Assembly: GCA_963664875.1 (NCBI GenBank)
Contig: OY761611.1
Location: 2,368,001-2,432,000 of the forward strand
Reading direction: 5' to 3'
DNA: 64,000 bases
Source: Candidatus Kapaibacterium sp.
GTDB lineage: Bacteria > Bacteroidota > Ignavibacteria > Kapaibacteriales > UBA2268
Shown here in pieces: positions 9,048 through 64,000 of this stretch. The stretch's first letter is position 1; every line of letters begins with the position of its first letter. The notes under the pieces are model-generated. The model ran no database searches. It was not told the DNA's origin and worked only from the letters and a program-made list of their open reading frames with translations. A program made the translations under genes and the position numbers.

Positions 9048-9421
9048 TTTTCCTTATCCATTAATCTTAAAAAAAGCGAATACGTCTTCAATAACTTATA
9101 TGTGTGTTATATATTTTAGAGATAAATCATGCAGTTTCAAATACAAACATAGATAATCCAATCTGCTATACCTGCAATAAGATACAAATATAAAAAGATA
9201 GTACAATCTTACCTAATTTGCATTGCAAAAATATTCAACACGAATCATAGCATAAGATACGAGAAAATTTGTGAATAGTTATGTAGGCTGTTTAAGATGT
9301 GCATGATGCAATAGATAAACCCCGATTTGTCATTAGAACTCAAAAATACTTGCAACTTCCTCTTTTAGCAAGAAGAATTCAATTCGTAAATATAAGAAAA
9401 ACTTACAAATTGTATCTCTAA

Positions 9422-10104
9422 ACAAGGGAAAGGTTGCTGAGCTGAGAGTTTATGCCGAGCAGAGTCGAGGCAAAGCATAACCCCTTGCCAAGAAACAAGA
9501 TAACTACATATATTGGTTTTCAAATGACATTTTCCATCTAACTAATTGTAAGGAAGTAGTTGTTAGAATGAAAGACAACGATATGAAGAAAATTTTATTA
9601 TTTTAAAACATATTGAGTTTATTAGTTGACGTTGTAGTCGAATAATGTAGGTTATTAAGAATATATTTTCAGCCTGAAAGGCTGATAGATAATAGCCCAT
9701 GGCAGCGCCATGGGAAGGTTGCAAGTATTGAGTAAACAGAGCCCTGTAAGGGCGGCAAGACTTTTCTATACAGGTGATATAAATAAGAAAATGGTGTTAC
9801 ATTTTCCATTTCTTTTTCTTTTTTTGCGATAAAAAAGAAAAAGAAACGGAAACCAAAGAAAAAGAAAAAAGAACGCTTTGTCTCCTCACCTCATATAGTG
9901 TTTAAGCGTAAGATGCGTATCCAATTAAGGAATTACTGAAAACAAATGTCTATATTATGGAGTGCTGATGCAATATATAGGCAATACACGGACTATTTAC
10001 AATGATATCATATATATTTTTTCGACTAAATGATATTTATAAAGAAAAATATAGACAAACAGTTAGCTCCTTTTTGCCACAAACGCAAGTTTGTATTAGG
10101 GATT
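9422..10104 (+). repeat. Dispersed ~690-bp non-coding element, copy 1 (composite of REP-like hairpins)
   Basis: Colinear, high-identity match to 48262-48956; hairpins at 9670-9684, 9696-9714 and 9741-9753. Confidence 0.92.
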
Positions 10105-10152
10105 TGGGATAAAATCAAATTATGAACTATTTACGAGTAAGAAAATTCTATG

Positions 10153-10192
10153 AAAAAACAAAGGCTGTCGCTTTTGAGGAGACAGCCTTTGT
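10153..10192 (-). terminator. Intrinsic terminator of the glgA operon
   Basis: ACAAAGGCTGTC...GACAGCCTTTGT with U-tract on the minus strand. Confidence 0.75.
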
Positions 10193-47917: not shown

Positions 47918-48261
47918 CTATTCTCTCTTGTTTTAATTTATATCAATATTTATCATATCTCATTGCAATATCAACCATTAGGGAAATACGGAGCAACTGT
48001 TCTTATGTTGCAGAGTCCAAACTATTTGGATATCAAAGCATTTGATACATATCGCTGATTGTAAATATTGCAGTTTGTAATATACAATCCAATTTTGTCT
48101 TATTCAAATGATTAGAGCTAAAGAACTAGTCAATACAAACGGGAAAGCAATTGTTTAACGGTCATTTATCATCAGGACGCAAAAATACTTATACATTGCT
48201 TTATTTTCCGGGCATAATAAACATCGTATTAATATGTAAATTTTACAATATCAAGCATTGT

Positions 48262-48956
48262 ACAAGGTTAAGGTTGCTGAGCTGAGAGCTTATGCCGAGT
48301 AAAGTCGAGGCAAAGCATAACCCTTGCCTATAAACAAGATAATGACTTGATTGGGTTTTCAAATGACATTTTCCATCTAACTAATTGCAAGAAAGTAGTT
48401 GTTAGAATGAAAGACAACGATATGAAGAAAATTTTTATTATTTTAAACCATATTGAGTTTATTAGTTAAACGTTGCGGTCGAATAATATAGGTTAATAAG
48501 AATATATTTTTAGCCTGAAAGGCTGATAGATAATAGCCCATGGCAGCGCCATGGGACGGTTGCAAGTATTGAGTAAACAGAGCCCTGTAAGGGCGGCAAG
48601 GTTTTCCTATACAGGAGATATAAATAAGAGATTGGTGTTACTTTTTCCATTTCTTTTTCTTTTTTTTGCGATAAAAAAGAAACGGCACTTCGACAAGTTC
48701 AGTGACCTTTGGAAAAAGAAAAAAGAACGCTTTGTCTCCTCTCCTCATATAGTGTTTAAGCGTAAGAAGCACATCCAATTAAGGAATTACTGAAAACAAA
48801 TGTATATATTAAGGAGTGCTGATGCAATATATAGGCAATAGACGGACTATTTACTATGATATCATATATTTTTTCGACTAAATGATATTTATAGAGAAAA
48901 AAATAGACAAACAGTTAGCTCCTTTTTGCCACAAACGCAAGTTTGTATTAGGGATT
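48262..48956 (+). repeat. Dispersed ~690-bp non-coding element, copy 2
   Basis: Colinear match to 9422-10104; hairpins at 48512-48524, 48537-48555 and 48582-48594. Confidence 0.92.
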
Positions 48957-49120
48957 AGGAATTAACCGAGATAAAGACCAATAAGTCTTTTCTAAGATCA
49001 ATAGCGAGTCAAACCTTATATTGCTATTTTGATAATCGAATTCAGGAAAAAATATTAAATTGCCTTATTCGATTACAAAATCTGATGTTTTTACAATAGT
49101 TCACCAAAGGGAAGATAATT

Positions 49121-54114: not shown

Positions 54115-54744
54115 TTAATTTAATTCGTATTTGTAGAGAGTTTCCTCTCTGACAGTTCCGTATTCTTTATCTTCTATGAATCTATAAGCAATACCAATCC
54201 CAGGAATATATTTTTCGATAAACGTATAATTCGGATCATTTGATATAGATTTTAGCTCCCATGCAAAATGAGTTTTCCCATCTAATTCAAAGTTGCTCTT
54301 TTGGACATTATACTTCCTGGAATCAATATAAATAACTCCTTCTTTTTCGATTTTAGTAATAAAAATCGGACTTGCAGATGTGATTGTATGTTCTTCGATA
54401 CCAGAATCAGAAGTAGAATAAACATAATCATTATACTCAAAGAAGTAATTATTGTCAACAAATTCTGTGGTATCGAGAGGATTGACAAAGTACATGGTAA
54501 ATACATTCATTTTACTGCCTTCGTAAGTGTATTCACCTTTTTGCCTAAATGTGATATAGTATTTAGAGATTCTGTCTTGCTCTTCATTTCCGTTATTTTG
54601 ACGCAAATCCATAAACCACTTATTCCCATCGGCTAAAGGCATCAGAGATTCACTCTGCGTGTCATTTGGAGTAATCGGATCATCATCGTCTCCGCAAGAG
54701 ATAATAAAAAGAGAGAGCAATAAAAATAAAGTGAGTTGTTTCAT
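54115..54744 (-). CDS. Hypothetical lipoprotein, paralog A
   Basis: Lipobox IISC; paralogous to 54762-55388. Confidence 0.8.
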   Translation of the reverse strand: MKQLTLFLLLSLFIISCGDDDDPITPNDTQSESLMPLADGNKWFMDLRQNNGNEEQDRISKYYITFRQKGEYTYEGSKMNVFTMYFVNPLDTTEFVDNNYFFEYNDYVYSTSDSGIEEHTITSASPIFITKIEKEGVIYIDSRKYNVQKSNFELDGKTHFAWELKSISNDPNYTFIEKYIPGIGIAYRFIEDKEYGTVREETLYKYELN

Positions 54745-54761
54745 CTTTGATTCCTTTTAGA

Positions 54762-55388
54762 TTAGTGCAATTCATATTTGTAGAGTTTCTGTTCTCTAAT
54801 ATCTCCTGTTTCTTTGTCTTCCCTGTTTTGAAATACCGGCCCAATTCCGGGTACAAAAACAGACCAATCATTATAAGAAGATGTAGAGTCTTTGGTAATC
54901 ATTTCCCATGCTCTGTGAGTTTTCCCATCAAATTCGTATTCTATTTTTTTAACATCGTAAATAGTACCACCTATATTTTGCAGACCTTCCTTATCAATGT
55001 GAGTTGCAAATGCTATAGAGGCACCTATTATTTTACGCATATCTATATCTGTTTGTTCAGCATAATAAGCATAATTGCCAAATTCAAATATTTTACTAAG
55101 CTCATAAGTATCAGTTGTATCATCAACATCAATCATATACAAGCTATACAGAGTAACAGAATTCCCTTCATAAGTATATTTTCCTTTGCTTTTAAAAGTG
55201 TAGTAGAATTCATAGGTCTCATCCGGATTGCTTAAATTATACTCCTGTAGATGCATATACCACTTATTGCCATCAGCAATTGGCCATAGAGACTCACTCT
55301 GCGTGTCAATCGGAGTAATCGGATCATCATCACCTCCGCAAGAGATTATAAAAAGAGAGAGCAATATAAACAGAGCAAGTTGTTTCAT
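54762..55388 (-). CDS. Hypothetical lipoprotein, paralog B
   Basis: Lipobox IISC; shares PxADGNKW, PGIG and LYKYEL with paralog A. Confidence 0.8.
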   Translation of the reverse strand: MKQLALFILLSLFIISCGGDDDPITPIDTQSESLWPIADGNKWYMHLQEYNLSNPDETYEFYYTFKSKGKYTYEGNSVTLYSLYMIDVDDTTDTYELSKIFEFGNYAYYAEQTDIDMRKIIGASIAFATHIDKEGLQNIGGTIYDVKKIEYEFDGKTHRAWEMITKDSTSSYNDWSVFVPGIGPVFQNREDKETGDIREQKLYKYELH

Positions 55389-56050: not shown

Positions 56051-56665
56051 CTACTCTACCTCTTCCAATAGCTCAGAATTATACATTTCGCTTGGGGCTA
56101 TCATCAGAGAGTCGTATGGGATATTTCTGCCATATCGTTCTTTCATGATTTGCTGAACTGTAGGCGAATTCAAATCAAAATCTCTCAGTTTGCGGAGTTT
56201 GCCTATTTCTAATCCGGTTGCTTCTTTGTATATCTTCCAAACATATTCTGAGCAGTACATTTTCTCTTCGTCCATGCTAAACATTATATCATAGGGTTTG
56301 CCGAGGTGGCTTTCTGCAATTTTCTGCATCTTAGCAATAACTTCCGGAGTCAGCACTTCACTTGCATTTTTCAGCCTCATAACCTGGAAGTAAGGCCGAG
56401 CTCCCCTATTCAAATAAGAATTTATTTCTGTAATTTGCACGGGAGAAATGGCTTCGTAAACACGCAACTTACCATCTTTTTCGAGCACGATACCAACATG
56501 ACTGAATTTAGAATTAGTCGCTATGTGTATAGCGTCGCTCTGGTCAGAGGGGAAAGTCTGAAAGATTAAATCTCCGTTCTGTAGTTTTTTGGTATCTATA
56601 GTGCTCGCACATGCAGATAGAATCAGTGCAATAGTAGCAATTAGAGCATATAATTTAGTTCGCAT
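56051..56665 (-). CDS. YiiX/YebB-like permuted papain-like (NlpC/P60) lipoprotein
   Basis: GDLIFQ, SHVGI, GKPYD, YCSEYVWK; lipobox LSAC. Confidence 0.9.
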   Translation of the reverse strand: MRTKLYALIATIALILSACASTIDTKKLQNGDLIFQTFPSDQSDAIHIATNSKFSHVGIVLEKDGKLRVYEAISPVQITEINSYLNRGARPYFQVMRLKNASEVLTPEVIAKMQKIAESHLGKPYDIMFSMDEEKMYCSEYVWKIYKEATGLEIGKLRKLRDFDLNSPTVQQIMKERYGRNIPYDSLMIAPSEMYNSELLEEVE

Positions 56666-56677
56666 GATAGTACCTCT

Positions 56678-57289
56678 TTATTTTACTTCTACTAATAGTT
56701 CAGAATTAAACATATCGCCGGGTGAAATCATCTTTTCATTGTAAGGAATGTTGTTGCCATACCTTTCTTTTAAGATACGTTGTAATGTTTCTGAAGTTAA
56801 GTCAAAATCTTTAAGCGGTCTAAGTTTACCTATTTCTAATCCGGTAGCTTTTTTATAGATTTTCCAGAGATATTCCGAGCAAAACATCTTCGAGTCTGAC
56901 CAATTGAAATACATATCGTAGCCCTTGCCGAGTTCCTTTTTGGCGAGAGATTCCATTTTCTTCAGCACATTATCAGTAATTACTTTATCAGCATTTTTGA
57001 GTCTTTTGACTACATAATCACTACCCTTACCACGGTTGATATAAGTATCAATATCCACAATCTGCACAGGCGAAACTGCTTCATATACAAACAACTCCCC
57101 ATCCTTTTTAAATACCATCCCTACGTGACTATACTTCGATTTAGTTGCCAGCTGAATAGGAACGCTCTGCCTCGACGTTGAAGTTTGGAAAATCAAATCA
57201 CCGCTTTGCAGCTTATCGAGACTAATGTTGTTATTGCTGCAAGCTGTGATGATAAAGAGAGAGATTAAGATATATAAAATATGTTTCAT
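56678..57289 (-). CDS. YiiX/YebB-like permuted papain-like lipoprotein, tandem paralog
   Basis: GDLIFQ, SHVGM, FCSEYLWK; lipobox ITAC. Confidence 0.9.
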   Translation of the reverse strand: MKHILYILISLFIITACSNNNISLDKLQSGDLIFQTSTSRQSVPIQLATKSKYSHVGMVFKKDGELFVYEAVSPVQIVDIDTYINRGKGSDYVVKRLKNADKVITDNVLKKMESLAKKELGKGYDMYFNWSDSKMFCSEYLWKIYKKATGLEIGKLRPLKDFDLTSETLQRILKERYGNNIPYNEKMISPGDMFNSELLVEVK

Positions 57290-57337: not shown

Positions 57338-57432
57338 CACCTCGTTCCGCTCGGTAAAAAAACGGGGGATCAGGTGGCGTGTTGTCCACATAGGGCGCTG
57401 CCCTATGCTACTGATTTGAGGCTTTCAGCCTC
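57338..57432. repeat. REP-like hairpin unit A at the 3' end of tnpA
   Basis: CATAGGGCGCTGCCCTATG and GAGGCTTTCAGCCTC hairpins; unit recurs at 57984-58076 and 58215-58306. Confidence 0.88.
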
Positions 57433-57884
57433 TAATCCCATAAATATTTAGGATTATAATCAACATTCAATTTTTTGAGTATTGCCAATAGTTCTTGTTT
57501 GAAATCGAATCTTTTATGATGTTCATTCTGATGGATGATATAGGAACTGATTTCTTCTATTTGTGAAACATGTACCGAAAAAGCACCATATCCGTCTTGC
57601 CAATAAAATGTACTATATTTTTGATTTTTGTCTTTAATCCATTTTGAAGATGATTTTTTAATTTCTTCAACCAACTTTGCAATTGTTAAATTTTTTGATA
57701 ACATACACAGGATATGTACATGATCTCTTTCTCCCCCGATTTTGACCGGATTACATTTTAAATTTTTACAAATTCCACCAATATAATCATGTAATTCATT
57801 TTCAATAGCTACATCAATTAGTTTTTCTCGGTGTTTTGTACTGAAAACGATATGCAGATAGACTTCAGTAAGTGATTGACTCAT
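57432..57884 (-). mobile_element. tnpA: Y1 HUH transposase, IS200/IS605 TnpA-like (REP-associated, RAYT-type)
   Basis: HIVFSTKHR, HUH motif DHVHIL, KKSSSKW, WQDGYGAFSV, YIIHQNEHH; no tnpB; flanked by palindromes. Confidence 0.9.
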
Positions 57885-57911: not shown

Positions 57912-58306
57912 CAGCCTGAAAGGCTGTAATCAGTAGCACAGGGTGAAGCCCTGTAAGGGCGTAATCCATAAATTAAATTACTACACCTCGCTCTGCTCGG
58001 TAAGAAACGGGGGTGTGGCTGTGTCTCTACCACATAGGGCGTTGCCCTACGCTACTGATTTGAGGCTTTCAGCCTCAATATAATATCTAATACAATTTTT
58101 CTATCTTCAGCCTGAAAGGCTGACATCAGTAGCACAGGGTGAAACCCTGTGACAGAGATTTTCACCCGATTTATATAAGCCCTGTAAGGGCGTAATCCTA
58201 ATCTCAAATCACGACATCTCGCTCCGCTTGGTAAAAATGGGTTTGTGGTGGTGTCCCTTTTACATAGGGCGCTGCCCTATGCTACTGATTTGAGGCTTTC
58301 AGCCTC
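57912..58306. repeat. Two tandem REPIN-like inverted pairs upstream of tnpA
   Basis: Forward units 57912-57967 and 58108-58198 face inverted units 57984-58076 and 58215-58306. Confidence 0.85.
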
Positions 58307-59372: not shown

Positions 59373-61295
59373 ATGTATGACTTCAAGTTTAAACCTTTCG
59401 AGGAAATGACGCCCGAGGACTACGCAAAAGTTGGTTTTAAATCCGGTTTGGAGGTGCACCAGCAGCTTCTTACTGAAAAGAAACTATTTTGCCGTTGCCC
59501 TGCCGGTCATTATAACAATCATAAATACCATGCTGAGATTTTGCGACACATGCGGCCGACTCTTTCAGAGCTCGGTGAATATGACGGCACTGCTTTGATG
59601 GAATTCAAAACCAAAAAGGAAATACTTTATCGCATCAATTACGATACTGTTTGTACTTATGAAATGGATGATACTCCTCCGTTTCAGATTAACGATCAGG
59701 CTCTTGATATTGCTATTGAAATAGGTATGATTTATGACGCTACGATTGTGAATGAACTTCATATAGCAAGAAAGCAATACCTCGATGGATCTATTCCTAC
59801 CGGATTCCAAAGGACAGCTATCACCTGCGTTGGTGGTTCTATTCCATTTAAAGACAGAAAAATCAACCTCATCCAGATGTCTATCGAAGAAGATTCCTGC
59901 CGCGAATTTAGCGATCAGGGACACACTCGTATTTATCTTACTGATAGATTAGGCATGCCACTCATCGAAACTGTAACAGAACCTGAAATGAAAACTCCTC
60001 AGGAAGTTGCTGAAGTAAATGAAATCATCAGACGCATAGCACGCTCTACCGGTCATGTTCGCACAGGTATCGGTGCTGGTCGCCAAGATGTTAACGTTTC
60101 TGTTACAGGTGGAACCCGTATCGAAATCAAAGGTGTTCATAAAATCAAAAATATACCAAGATTGACATATAACGAAGCTATGAGGCAGTGGAATCTCCTT
60201 AGACTTAGAGAAGAGCTTGCCAATCGTGGAGTAACTGAAGAGACTTTCGAAGCAAACTACAAAGATGTAACTAAACATTTACGTAAAACCCGATTCCAAA
60301 TAATCAAAGATGCTATCGATGCCGGGAAAATAGTAAATTGTGTCAGACTAAAGGGCTTTAAAGACTTACTCAAGTGGCAAACTCAGACCGATACTGTCTT
60401 CTCTAAAGAGTTATCTGACAGAGTAAGGGTAATAGCCTGTCTTTCAGAATTACCGAATATAATCCATTCGGACAGTCCATCTGAAAAGCTTTCTTCTTAT
60501 GAATGGAGCTCTTTGAAAAAATCAGTTGGTGCTACCGATAAAGATACAATCGTACTTGTTTGGGGTAGCGAAGAAGATGCGGAAACCGGAGCTAAAGAAA
60601 TTATCATCAGAGCCAAAGAAGCAACTATCGGCATTCCGTCTGAAACAAGACAGGCTCTTATTGACGGAACTACCGGTTTTGAGCGTATTCTCCCCGGCCC
60701 TGAAAGGATGTATCCTGATACGGATCTTCCTCCTAAAACTATTTCAGCTGAAAGATTGCAAAGAATAAAAGACTCTCTGACTGAGCCATATTGGGAAAGA
60801 GAAGCCAAATATTATAGCTTAGGTGTGCCGGAAGATTCTATCAAGTCCTTAGCCATTTCGCCTTTTTCTGCAACTTTCGATAAGATAGTAGCGATGGGAG
60901 TAGATGCAAAACTTGCTGCAGTTGCTTTGACTCAGTTTGTCAAACGTCTAAACAAAAAAGGTTACGAAACAGAATACCTTACTGAGGAGCATTTCCTAAA
61001 TATTTTTGAATTGTTCAAAAGCGGAAAATTAGCTAAAGATGGTATTTATGATGCAATCAAAAGAGCGATAGTTTTAGGAGAAGTATCATCTCATAATTTG
61101 CCTGAAAAATGCTCCGAATCTGAAATGAAAGGCAGAATCAACGAAGCAAAAGAATTGATGAATAAAATACGAATCAAATATCCTGACAAAAAAGGTAAAA
61201 TATTTATGGGCTCTATCATGAAAAAGCTTCGTGGCAGAGTTGATGGAGTTGAAATACTCAAACTTGTTAATGAATTTAAGCCGGAGGAAGTATAA
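59373..61295 (+). CDS. gatE: Glu-tRNA(Gln) amidotransferase subunit GatE
   Basis: GLEVHQQL, KLFC, RPTLSELGEYD, DGSIPTGFQRT, EEDS, DRLGMPLIE, RQDVNVS, central AspRS-like insertion, RMYPDTD. Confidence 0.93.
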   Translation: MYDFKFKPFEEMTPEDYAKVGFKSGLEVHQQLLTEKKLFCRCPAGHYNNHKYHAEILRHMRPTLSELGEYDGTALMEFKTKKEILYRINYDTVCTYEMDDTPPFQINDQALDIAIEIGMIYDATIVNELHIARKQYLDGSIPTGFQRTAITCVGGSIPFKDRKINLIQMSIEEDSCREFSDQGHTRIYLTDRLGMPLIETVTEPEMKTPQEVAEVNEIIRRIARSTGHVRTGIGAGRQDVNVSVTGGTRIEIKGVHKIKNIPRLTYNEAMRQWNLLRLREELANRGVTEETFEANYKDVTKHLRKTRFQIIKDAIDAGKIVNCVRLKGFKDLLKWQTQTDTVFSKELSDRVRVIACLSELPNIIHSDSPSEKLSSYEWSSLKKSVGATDKDTIVLVWGSEEDAETGAKEIIIRAKEATIGIPSETRQALIDGTTGFERILPGPERMYPDTDLPPKTISAERLQRIKDSLTEPYWEREAKYYSLGVPEDSIKSLAISPFSATFDKIVAMGVDAKLAAVALTQFVKRLNKKGYETEYLTEEHFLNIFELFKSGKLAKDGIYDAIKRAIVLGEVSSHNLPEKCSESEMKGRINEAKELMNKIRIKYPDKKGKIFMGSIMKKLRGRVDGVEILKLVNEFKPEEV

Positions 61296-62732: not shown

Positions 62733-63046
62733 TGTTAGGCATTGTTTTCTTTAGATTATTCGAACATCTCACAGCAACATCTCTTACCCTGTTGTCTTGA
62801 CTACTGCTCTTATGTCTATCCGAAATCTTTTTTTATATTTAAAAACCTTCAAAGCAAAAAAAAAAAGTAAATGCGCTTAGTTACATAGAACCAAAAATAC
62901 ATTTACCCCAAAAATGTCATTAGCGATAATCTCTAATGACTGTCATTAGAAAAAAGAAGATATAACATGTTGATAAATAGTGTTTTAGCAGATATTAAAA
63001 AAAGTCTATATTAGGAAAACAGATGTAAGAAAATCTTACGAAAAAT

Positions 63047-64000
63047 ATGGATGTAAAAATTGCTTTTACCGACAAAGAAATTACACCTTGGGCAGGTATT
63101 TCTTTGATGCAAAATATGCTAAAAAAAATGTCTTTTGATCAAATATTAAAAGATTTGGCGTTACCATCACAGGGTTCGAATAGAGGTTACAAACCAGAAC
63201 AACTAATACAACACTTTTTACTGGGTATTTGGTGCGGTGCAAGTTGCTTCGAACATTTAGAAGTAACAAGACATGACAAAGTCATCCAAAATTTGTTTGG
63301 ATGGTCAAAAATGGCTGGAAGCAAAGCATTCCACAGATATTTTAATAAGTTTTCTCAGGCAACAAATCAACAGGTTTTTGATGAGCTTTACACTTGGTTC
63401 TTCAATAATTTTCAGTTTGACAACTACACAATTGACTTTGATTCTACGGTGATAACTCGCTATGGAAATCAGCAGGGTGCTGCAAAAGGTTATAACCCTC
63501 GTAAACCGGGAAGAAATTCACATCACCCTTTGCTTGCATTTGTCTCAGATTGCCGAATGATAGCCAATTGCTGGCTTCGGCCCGGCAATACCGGTGCATC
63601 AAGCAATTTTCTGAGTTTTTTGGAAGATACACTTTATAAGCTTGGTAATAAAAAAGCAGGTTTAATCCGTGCCGACAGCGGATTTTACTCAGACGAAATA
63701 ATGAAATATCTCGAAAGTACCAAACATAATTATATAATAGCAGCAAAGTTTTACAGACCTTTGAAAGTAAAAATTGCCAAACATACAAAATGGTGGCCTA
63801 TAAGTAAAGGTTTAGAAATAGGCGAAACAAGCTACCAATCAGACAACTGGGATGAACCCCGCCGAGTTATAATGATAAGACAGTATGTTCCACAACGTCC
63901 TAAAGCAGTCGGAAAACAATTGAGCTTTTTCGAAGGAGACATGCAATACAAAGATTATCGCTACTCTTGTTTTGTAACAAATTTGGATTTGCCTGCACAA
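63047..64000 (+). mobile_element. IS1380 family DDE transposase, truncated by the window edge
   Basis: Manual translation: MDVKIAFTDKEITPWAG, TIDFDSTVITRYG, KGYNPRKPGRNSHHPL, LRPGN, IRADSGF; left terminal repeat not identified. Confidence 0.88.

Follow-up and report, generated by a model that had tools for sequence, protein, structure and literature searches.

Introduction

HUH enzymes make no target duplication, and the target of IS200/IS605 elements is a tetranucleotide. The IS1111-family elements IS4321 and IS5075 reportedly target the terminal inverted repeats (TIRs) of Tn21. The hallmarks of IS110/IS1111 elements are a fixed position, a fixed orientation and no added bases (PMC11187229, PMC11208160), and the IS1111 group carries sub-terminal inverted repeats of 11–13 bp that lie 7 and 3 bp from the ends (PMC11187229). 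IS1111 targets the Coxiella MITE QMITE2 (PMC10969869), and an IS110-family MITE, MITEPpu9, has been described (PMC12288879). For IS1247, a 5-bp repeat is listed (PMC3281130, Table 2), while Acido-Lenti-1 is among the candidate RNAs reported in PMC2864571.

Here we describe a non-coding repeat of a Candidatus Kapaibacterium sp. that we encountered in a stretch of 64,000 nt (the window, that is, the whole stretch of DNA that was analysed; positions are those of the window unless marked as genome positions), and we compare it with the genomes of four congeners (G001 to G004). As an overall explanation, we consider it reasonably probable that the repeat is a nest of two non-autonomous elements, namely a shell with the ends of an IS1380-family IS and a segment, X, that lies within one of the shell's TIRs.

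Results

Extent and copy number of the repeat

A reading made from the window alone (hereafter the sequence-only reading) had described two colinear copies in the same orientation, roughly 90% identical by eye, that shared no conserved ORF, no TIR and no target duplication. Colinearity and orientation were borne out, with 86% identity over 805 bp when the diverged left part is included and 93% within segment X, and neither copy contained an ORF of at least 100 aa. The left bounds had been set at 9422 and 48262, about 100 bp to the right of the true starts at 9320 and 48159, and for this reason the TIR and the duplication had been missed: the left end of copy 1 matches the TIR of an IS1380-family IS, and ATAAA is found on both sides of this copy. 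At copy 2, 4 of the 5 bases of the duplication match. Nor is the repeat limited to two copies, as BLASTN and a pattern search detected 16 right ends in the closed 3.83-Mb genome, against none for a reversed control pattern.

9320-10108, forward strand: copy 1, 789 bp, flanked by the 5-bp target duplication
9315-9319, forward strand: target duplication, left copy (ATAAA)
10109-10113, forward strand: target duplication, right copy (ATAAA)
48159-48960, forward strand: copy 2, consisting of a decayed outer TIR (6 of 17 positions mismatched), the shell, X (48372-48955) and the tip (48956-48960)

Both ends could be assigned in 11 of the 16 copies, the other five having no assignable left end. A perfect 5-bp duplication was present in 6 of these 11, with a mean of 4.3 of 5 bases matching, and permutation of the flanks of the 11 copies gave p = 0.005 for matches and p = 0.006 for perfect pairs. 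The BLASTN comparison with the whole genome and with relatives, which the sequence-only reading had proposed as a check, thus returned the 16 copies, a sharp common right end and an empty site for copy 1, but the left extents varied. The copy 1 site was empty in all four congeners, where the matches to the flanking genes lie 61–134 bp apart versus approximately 1100 bp here, a comparison that is between species and not at base resolution. The genes flanking copy 2 were not neighbours in any of the four congeners. Four read runs yielded no junction that bypassed the element, or X by itself, and no allele of the shell without X at the locus of copy 1; since contigs are interrupted at these repeats, we draw nothing from this.

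The 16 X copies are confined to the part of the genome that runs from 2.04 Mb over the record end to 0.16 Mb, with none in the interval from 0.16 to 2.04 Mb. In 13 of the 16, the gene next to the shell is oriented towards the element, and no strand bias among the copies was evident by eye.

The outer shell and the resident IS1380-family IS

The genome contains three copies of a 1475-bp IS with the same ends as the element; the copies differ by 0 or 5 bases, and each is flanked by a perfect 5-bp duplication. The 435-aa protein of this IS is an IS1380 transposase (PF13701; NF033539, 271.7 bits against a cut-off of 180), and related ISs of other genomes have the same type of end. The copy of this IS in the window and the shell parts of copy 1 are as follows.

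62907-64000, forward strand: left part of an autonomous IS1380-family IS, which continues to genome position 2432381; 435-aa transposase from 63047; 5-bp duplication
9320-9336, forward strand: outer TIR of the shell, which shares 16 of 17 bases with the right TIR of the IS1380 in this genome
9337-9520, forward strand: body of the MITE shell, IS1380-type by sequence comparison
9421-9490, unstranded: central hairpin of the shell, with a nested palindromic insert that includes the unit at 9454-9471 noticed in the sequence-only reading
9521-9532, forward strand: inner 12 bp (the "box") of the second TIR of the shell, severed from its tip by X
10104-10108, forward strand: 5-bp tip that completes the split TIR; joined to the box, it agrees with the IS1380 left TIR (62907-62923) at 16 of 17 positions

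The outer shell (approximately 215 bp, 9320–9532) is very probably an ordinary IS1380-type MITE. It is multi-copy and has no transposase of its own, and the genome also contains shells of about 174 bp that stand alone, with their ends intact and a central hairpin (e.g., genome 2979449–2979622). A shorter central hairpin without the palindromic insert was seen in other shell copies and in one sequencing run. In a BLAST census we counted 42 loci in the genome with shell arms, 12 of which were near an X right end. Given the shell ends, the duplication and the resident IS, established MITE biology makes it likely that the shell is mobilised in trans by the IS1380 transposase. As a first step, then, the resident transposase would move the short MITE shell into A/T-rich 5-mers. 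The earlier proposal of a non-autonomous element moved in trans holds to this extent, although for the shell the ends and the duplication indicate the DDE transposase of IS1380 and not the HUH TnpA that had been named.

Several further observations concern these repeats. Among close relatives, the outer TIRs of the shells differ at 0.31 per site over positions 1–5, at 0.008 in the box and at 0.12 in the interior, the variation in the outer TIR lying in positions 1, 3, 4 and 5 with position 2 constant. At the left end of this IS1380 clade (including 62907–64000), an 8-bp TIR box occurs three times, the inner two forming a palindrome. A second gene-less MITE family, of approximately 190–290 bp with its own 17-bp terminal repeats and about 75 end matches in the genome, often takes the place of the central hairpin in IS1380 shells and has palindromic cargo of its own; a fused-end hairpin of this family lies at 10160–10190 of the window. 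The ends of the second family look IS1182-like, which is our assumption, as are the family labels given to it and to the other passenger palindromes. In a search for an IS1182 partner, PF05598 was absent from this genome and PF13586 was present in one of the five genus genomes. A 1221-bp DDE IS (7 copies here) and an unrelated IS110 element of G004 have the same short GC-rich palindrome family as their target, and this palindrome family also rides in shells.

Segment X and its junctions

Segment X divides the inner 17-bp TIR exactly 5 bp from the tip and without a duplication, and its excision in silico restored the 17-bp TIR length for both TIR types. The hairpin that the sequence-only reading had placed near the end of the element was confirmed at 10079–10094.

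9533-10103, forward strand: segment X, 571 bp, non-coding, with a conserved 16-nt left end and a conserved right end of about 45 nt
9536-9549, unstranded: left arm of the sub-terminal inverted repeat of X; partner 10055-10068, 11 of 14 positions complementary by eye
9803-9852, unstranded: A/T-rich hairpin module that occurs outside X as well, both in this genome and in congeners
10079-10094, unstranded: 6-bp hairpin near the right end of X, with a variable loop and no compensatory changes

In this genome, all 12 X left ends follow a TIR box. Across five genomes, the 34 copies with both junctions showed a fixed position, a fixed orientation and no added bases. These numbers come from a scripted count of 52 right ends, 34 of them with a left junction, in which at least 3 of the other 18 look like false matches, one copy of this genome was missed and one row was out of register with its class unchanged. 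The interior of X is exchangeable, with versions of 137–150, 274–330 and 488–615 bp across the genus, and the junctions are constant in the five genomes. Complementarity of the sub-terminal repeat reaches 13 of 14 positions in some G002 copies. A 1.65-kb X in G004 contains an IS3-like insertion (family assigned by eye), which we considered as a partner of X and rejected. At two G002 loci, a shell with an intact TIR is fused to the terminal ~60 bp of X; the fusion point is the same base in both, each TIR type is used once, and the IS1380 transposase may have produced them by adjacent deletion.

When 400 other genomes of the class were searched for the X ends, 9 gave a single match each, with 2 mismatches, which equals the control level, and none was multi-copy. 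Searches of viral contigs for the X ends gave 0, 2 unrelated and 0 matches, and searches of plasmids gave none. In the genome collection, the right-end pattern, which includes the tip and is blind to X in other kinds of target, matched in Ca. Kapaibacterium records.

Independent insertion of X or capture of neighbouring DNA

From the sequence comparisons, we think it fairly likely that X is a separately inserted, gene-less element that targets TIRs. In a second step, X would enter an IS1380-type TIR 5 bp inside it, in fixed orientation and repeatedly, whether in left TIRs, right TIRs or both; in a third, shell and X would both gather small palindromic modules, including the three-hairpin repeat (triad) of tnpA, as passengers. 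Shell and X may in addition travel together as one composite, and the similarity of the X copies may be maintained in part by gene conversion.

The reading that we set against independent insertion, and that we regard as distinctly less likely, has a single layer: X and the tip would be neighbouring DNA captured by an IS1380 MITE through an alternative end, the whole would move only as a unit, and X would have been homogenised by conversion. IS1380 members have been described as misreading their ends and taking adjacent DNA along (PMC9330008), and the duplication here does surround the whole composite; capture, however, would be expected to yield variable end points, and the junctions of X are the same in five genomes. 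In favour of capture, the last 7–9 bases of the tip are common to IS1380-type TIRs; against it, the inner TIR is always without exactly its 5-bp tip, which is present again after X. Movement as a unit fits the outer TIRs, which are mostly intact (7 of 10 at conserved positions), and the finding that X lies on the same arm in all 12 full copies of this genome; the 275-bp X copies of G004 likewise have near-identical shells. Against it, X is found at the same base of either or both TIRs and with at least two unrelated shell interiors: near-identical X copies of 137–140 bp occupy either TIR, and at two G004 loci X is present in both TIRs of one shell.

Also at odds with a single layer is the base at the tip, which tracks the type of the inner box and not the outer end. 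The first tip base was C in 1 of 18 copies with a left-type box and in 10 of 16 with a right-type box (34 copies, 5 genomes; Fisher p = 6e-4, which overstates the case because the copies are related and not independent). Uninterrupted ends gave a similar split, with C at this position in 2 of 15 left-type and 19 of 26 right-type ends. Tips are hypervariable in uninterrupted ends too (0.31 versus 0.12 mismatches per site), so that tip differences alone prove little. Inversion of the shell was considered as the source of this covariation and rejected, since the outer tips match their own box type. The tip also resembles the TIR start of related ISs in other genomes, which counts against a separate insertion of X.

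We compared the histories of X and the shells as well. The 12 X copies of this genome were 90–97% alike (mean 93%). For eight shells of one type, similarity over the first 95 bp ranged from 62 to 97% (mean 75%), and X and shell similarity were uncorrelated (r = 0.02). The AU test rejected trees that grouped X according to right-type box (p = 0.0003) and trees that followed three near-identical shells (p = 0.018); a single X clade for the three second-type shells was not rejected (p = 0.15). Much of this mismatch between shell and X could be due to gene conversion between X copies. We infer that it would hardly explain how X joins several end types at the same base with 5 bp of one-sided homology. 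Against independent insertion, none of the 6 TIRs of the three autonomous IS copies held X.

Candidate enzymes for X

Our tentative first candidate, chosen by analogy, is an IS110/IS1111-type RNA-guided recombinase that would have acted on X in trans and would since have been lost from this genome. X works like an IS110/IS1111 element, but we do not file it as a member. Its sub-terminal repeat of 12–14 bp lies 3 nt from one end and approximately 35 nt from the other, which departs from the 7/3-bp geometry of IS1111. No autonomous element with X ends was found in the five genus genomes, three of the congeners being fragmented MAGs. Likewise, no IS110 transposase was found in this genome or in G001–G003, and the seven of G004 differ from X both in their ends and in their target. 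Among 30 IS110 loci of the order (from 21 of 151 genomes), none had X ends.

Next in rank, and in our view unlikely, comes an end-directed side reaction of the IS1380 transposase on X. Such a reaction is possible in that X inserts one duplication length (5 bp) from the tip and has a right end like an inverted TIR box. An HUH TnpA would come third, and some other kind of enzyme is also conceivable. Unlikely as well is that X homes to IS1380 ends by base pairing of DNA or RNA with a borrowed, non-IS110 enzyme, and would thus be a self-guided parasite of MITEs. Positions 10090–10099 of X are complementary to the right-type TIR box 5′ of the insertion point (10 of 11 positions, one bulge), whereas the left-type box, present in 10 of 12 copies here, pairs more weakly with the right end of X. 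This complementarity may be only the relic of an IS1380 end.

Other origins were considered. A Y2 transposase (IS91-type) was found in none of the five genus genomes, and the control genomes gave no match either. Reading X as an attC site or integron cassette was considered from the end motifs and dropped on inspection, and the right end of X was rejected as a transposase C-terminus, there being no upstream ORF in the loci that we read. We also rejected a retro-element or group II intron origin: the 137-bp versions are too short, RT genes occur in only 3 of the 5 genomes, and at least one truncated copy has also lost shell DNA.

The tnpA-associated hairpins

The sequence-only reading had the element built from the hairpins that flank a HUH transposase gene. 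The triad itself was confirmed at 9671–9755, at 48512–48595 and beside tnpA, and the palindrome at 9454–9471 resembles the reverse complement of 57983–58000. The triad nevertheless makes up only about 85 of 789 bp and stands at neither end.

9671-9755, unstranded: three-hairpin tnpA-associated repeat, a passenger within X
57432-57884, reverse strand: IS200-like Y1 tnpA, with triad repeats at 57392-57431, 57913-57960, 58037-58076, 58109-58191 and 58266-58305

The first two hairpins of the triad (9670–9714, reverse strand) match the Rfam family Acido-Lenti-1 (RF01687) with 36.7 bits against a gathering threshold of 37 (E = 1.6e-6), and beside the tnpA of the window the same family scores 24.2 bits. 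The TnpA had been taken for a RAYT or TnpA-REP enzyme. The REP-associated model gave 22.4 bits against a cut-off of 80, while the IS200/IS605 model gave 72.1 against 55, and the Y--Q--HH signature of the protein is that of subclass 1.2 (PMC6006769). The triad of X aligned better to the repeats of two other tnpA paralogues (scores of 86 and 82) than to those of the tnpA in the window (48).

That TnpA moves the whole element, or X, by way of the triad hairpins, as first proposed, seems improbable to us. The enzyme stays a candidate for X in that X inserts without a duplication, which is what an HUH enzyme would do, and Y1 tnpA genes are present in all five genus genomes; yet an X end lies beside none of 14 tnpA loci, and this tnpA has a passenger motif in common with X and not the X ends. 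The triad is internal to X and is missing from the 137–150-bp and 274–330-bp versions with the same ends. Neither strand has constant bases 5′ of the insertion point, in contrast to the IS200/IS605 tetranucleotide target, and the outer ends and the duplication are of IS1380 type. In all four left-truncated X copies the break falls at about 9714–9726, at the foot of the second triad hairpin, where nicking would be possible. The tnpA-type hairpins in X look like passengers.

The truncated copies (genome 156169, 3557349, 3662600 and 3756083) break within ~13 bp of one another at the 3′ foot of hairpin 2 and have different left partners. These breakpoints are the best hint of TnpA or replication acting on the triad.

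Folding and expression

That the element is a large structured non-coding RNA, travelling as cargo and maintained by selection, is most improbable: the folding z-scores (−6.0 and −6.3), the near-threshold Rfam match over 45 nt and the greater uniformity of X compared with the shells would suit it, but both strands fold equally well, like DNA palindromes, the consensus fold of 12 X copies shows 2 two-sided changes versus 58 (plus strand) and 66 (minus strand) broken cells, 15 of 270 cells in the end hairpin are broken and 0 are compensatory, the interior is swapped wholesale between species, and promoter-like sites number 5 versus 4.8 by chance. The covariation count on the 12 X copies thus lends this part of the sequence-only reading no support, and an Rfam search, proposed there as a check, gave no match at the gathering threshold in the window. 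The other 31 sub-threshold Rfam matches were set aside as generic hairpin matches. In one RNA run the flanking genes were covered and the element almost not at all; these were contigs, possibly of another strain, and we counted them as no evidence.

Other features of the window and of the congeners

At 59373–61295, the window encodes a 640-aa GatB-family protein with a weak GAD-domain match, a GatE-like layout in a bacterium. Tandem paralogue pairs occupy 56051–57289 and 54115–55388, namely two C92 permuted papain-like amidases and two ORFs of 208 and 209 aa, and the latter pair lies between the two units of a perfect 39-bp direct repeat (53798 and 55898). In G001, several short contigs contain long reverse-transcriptase ORFs (800–1260 aa), possibly eukaryotic retroelement contamination of the bin.

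Discussion

In nature, X has entered IS1380-type ends about 50 times, always at one base and without a scar, with an enzyme that is not evident in the closed genome. Should X prove IS110-like, IS1380 ends would join the known targets of RNA-guided recombinases, and X would point to an unsampled system; should another enzyme be responsible, X would represent a new route to precise, duplication-free insertion. REP-like hairpins far from tnpA can, moreover, spread as cargo of unrelated elements, and motif sharing with the neighbourhood of a tnpA therefore does not identify the mobiliser.

Our literature search, which had ISfinder, most subscription journals and the supplements of the IS110 papers outside its range, found no account of an element without genes that divides the TIRs of IS1380. 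The triad resembles the Acido-Lenti-1 (RF01687) and TnpA-Y1 subclass 1.2 association, in that it scores just below the Rfam gathering threshold and flanks subclass 1.2 tnpA genes here. It is unlike REP/REPIN-RAYT systems, being in this element a single internal passenger and not an inverted pair that makes up the ends, and under the NCBIfam models the TnpA does not qualify as a RAYT.

Like the transposable modules (TMos) of ISEcp1 and ISPme1, the composite combines an IS1380-type end with a weakly related opposite end, and a 5-bp duplication surrounds the whole. TMos, however, hold a transposase and have variable far ends, whereas in our element identical junctions recur in five species and the inner TIR is tipless. 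The shell shares with IS1380-derived MITEs (IS1247, ISPme1, ISEcp1) its non-coding nature, TIRs that match a resident IS1380, the 5-bp duplication, intergenic location and multiple copies. It differs from them in that one TIR is split by an insert of 137–615 bp and in that the interior of the element is a nest of unrelated palindromic modules.

X differs from IS1111 systems in having no gene, in taking an IS1380-type TIR as its target and in lacking the 7/3-bp geometry, and neither a matching transposase nor a guide RNA was found for it in the five genus genomes and at 30 IS110 loci. In where and how it inserts, X is like IS4321 and IS5075 in the Tn21 TIR, IS1111 in QMITE2, and MITEPpu9: as with these elements, it sits at a fixed spot and in a fixed orientation within the end or repeat of another element, and it does so without added bases (PMC11187229, PMC10969869, PMC12288879).
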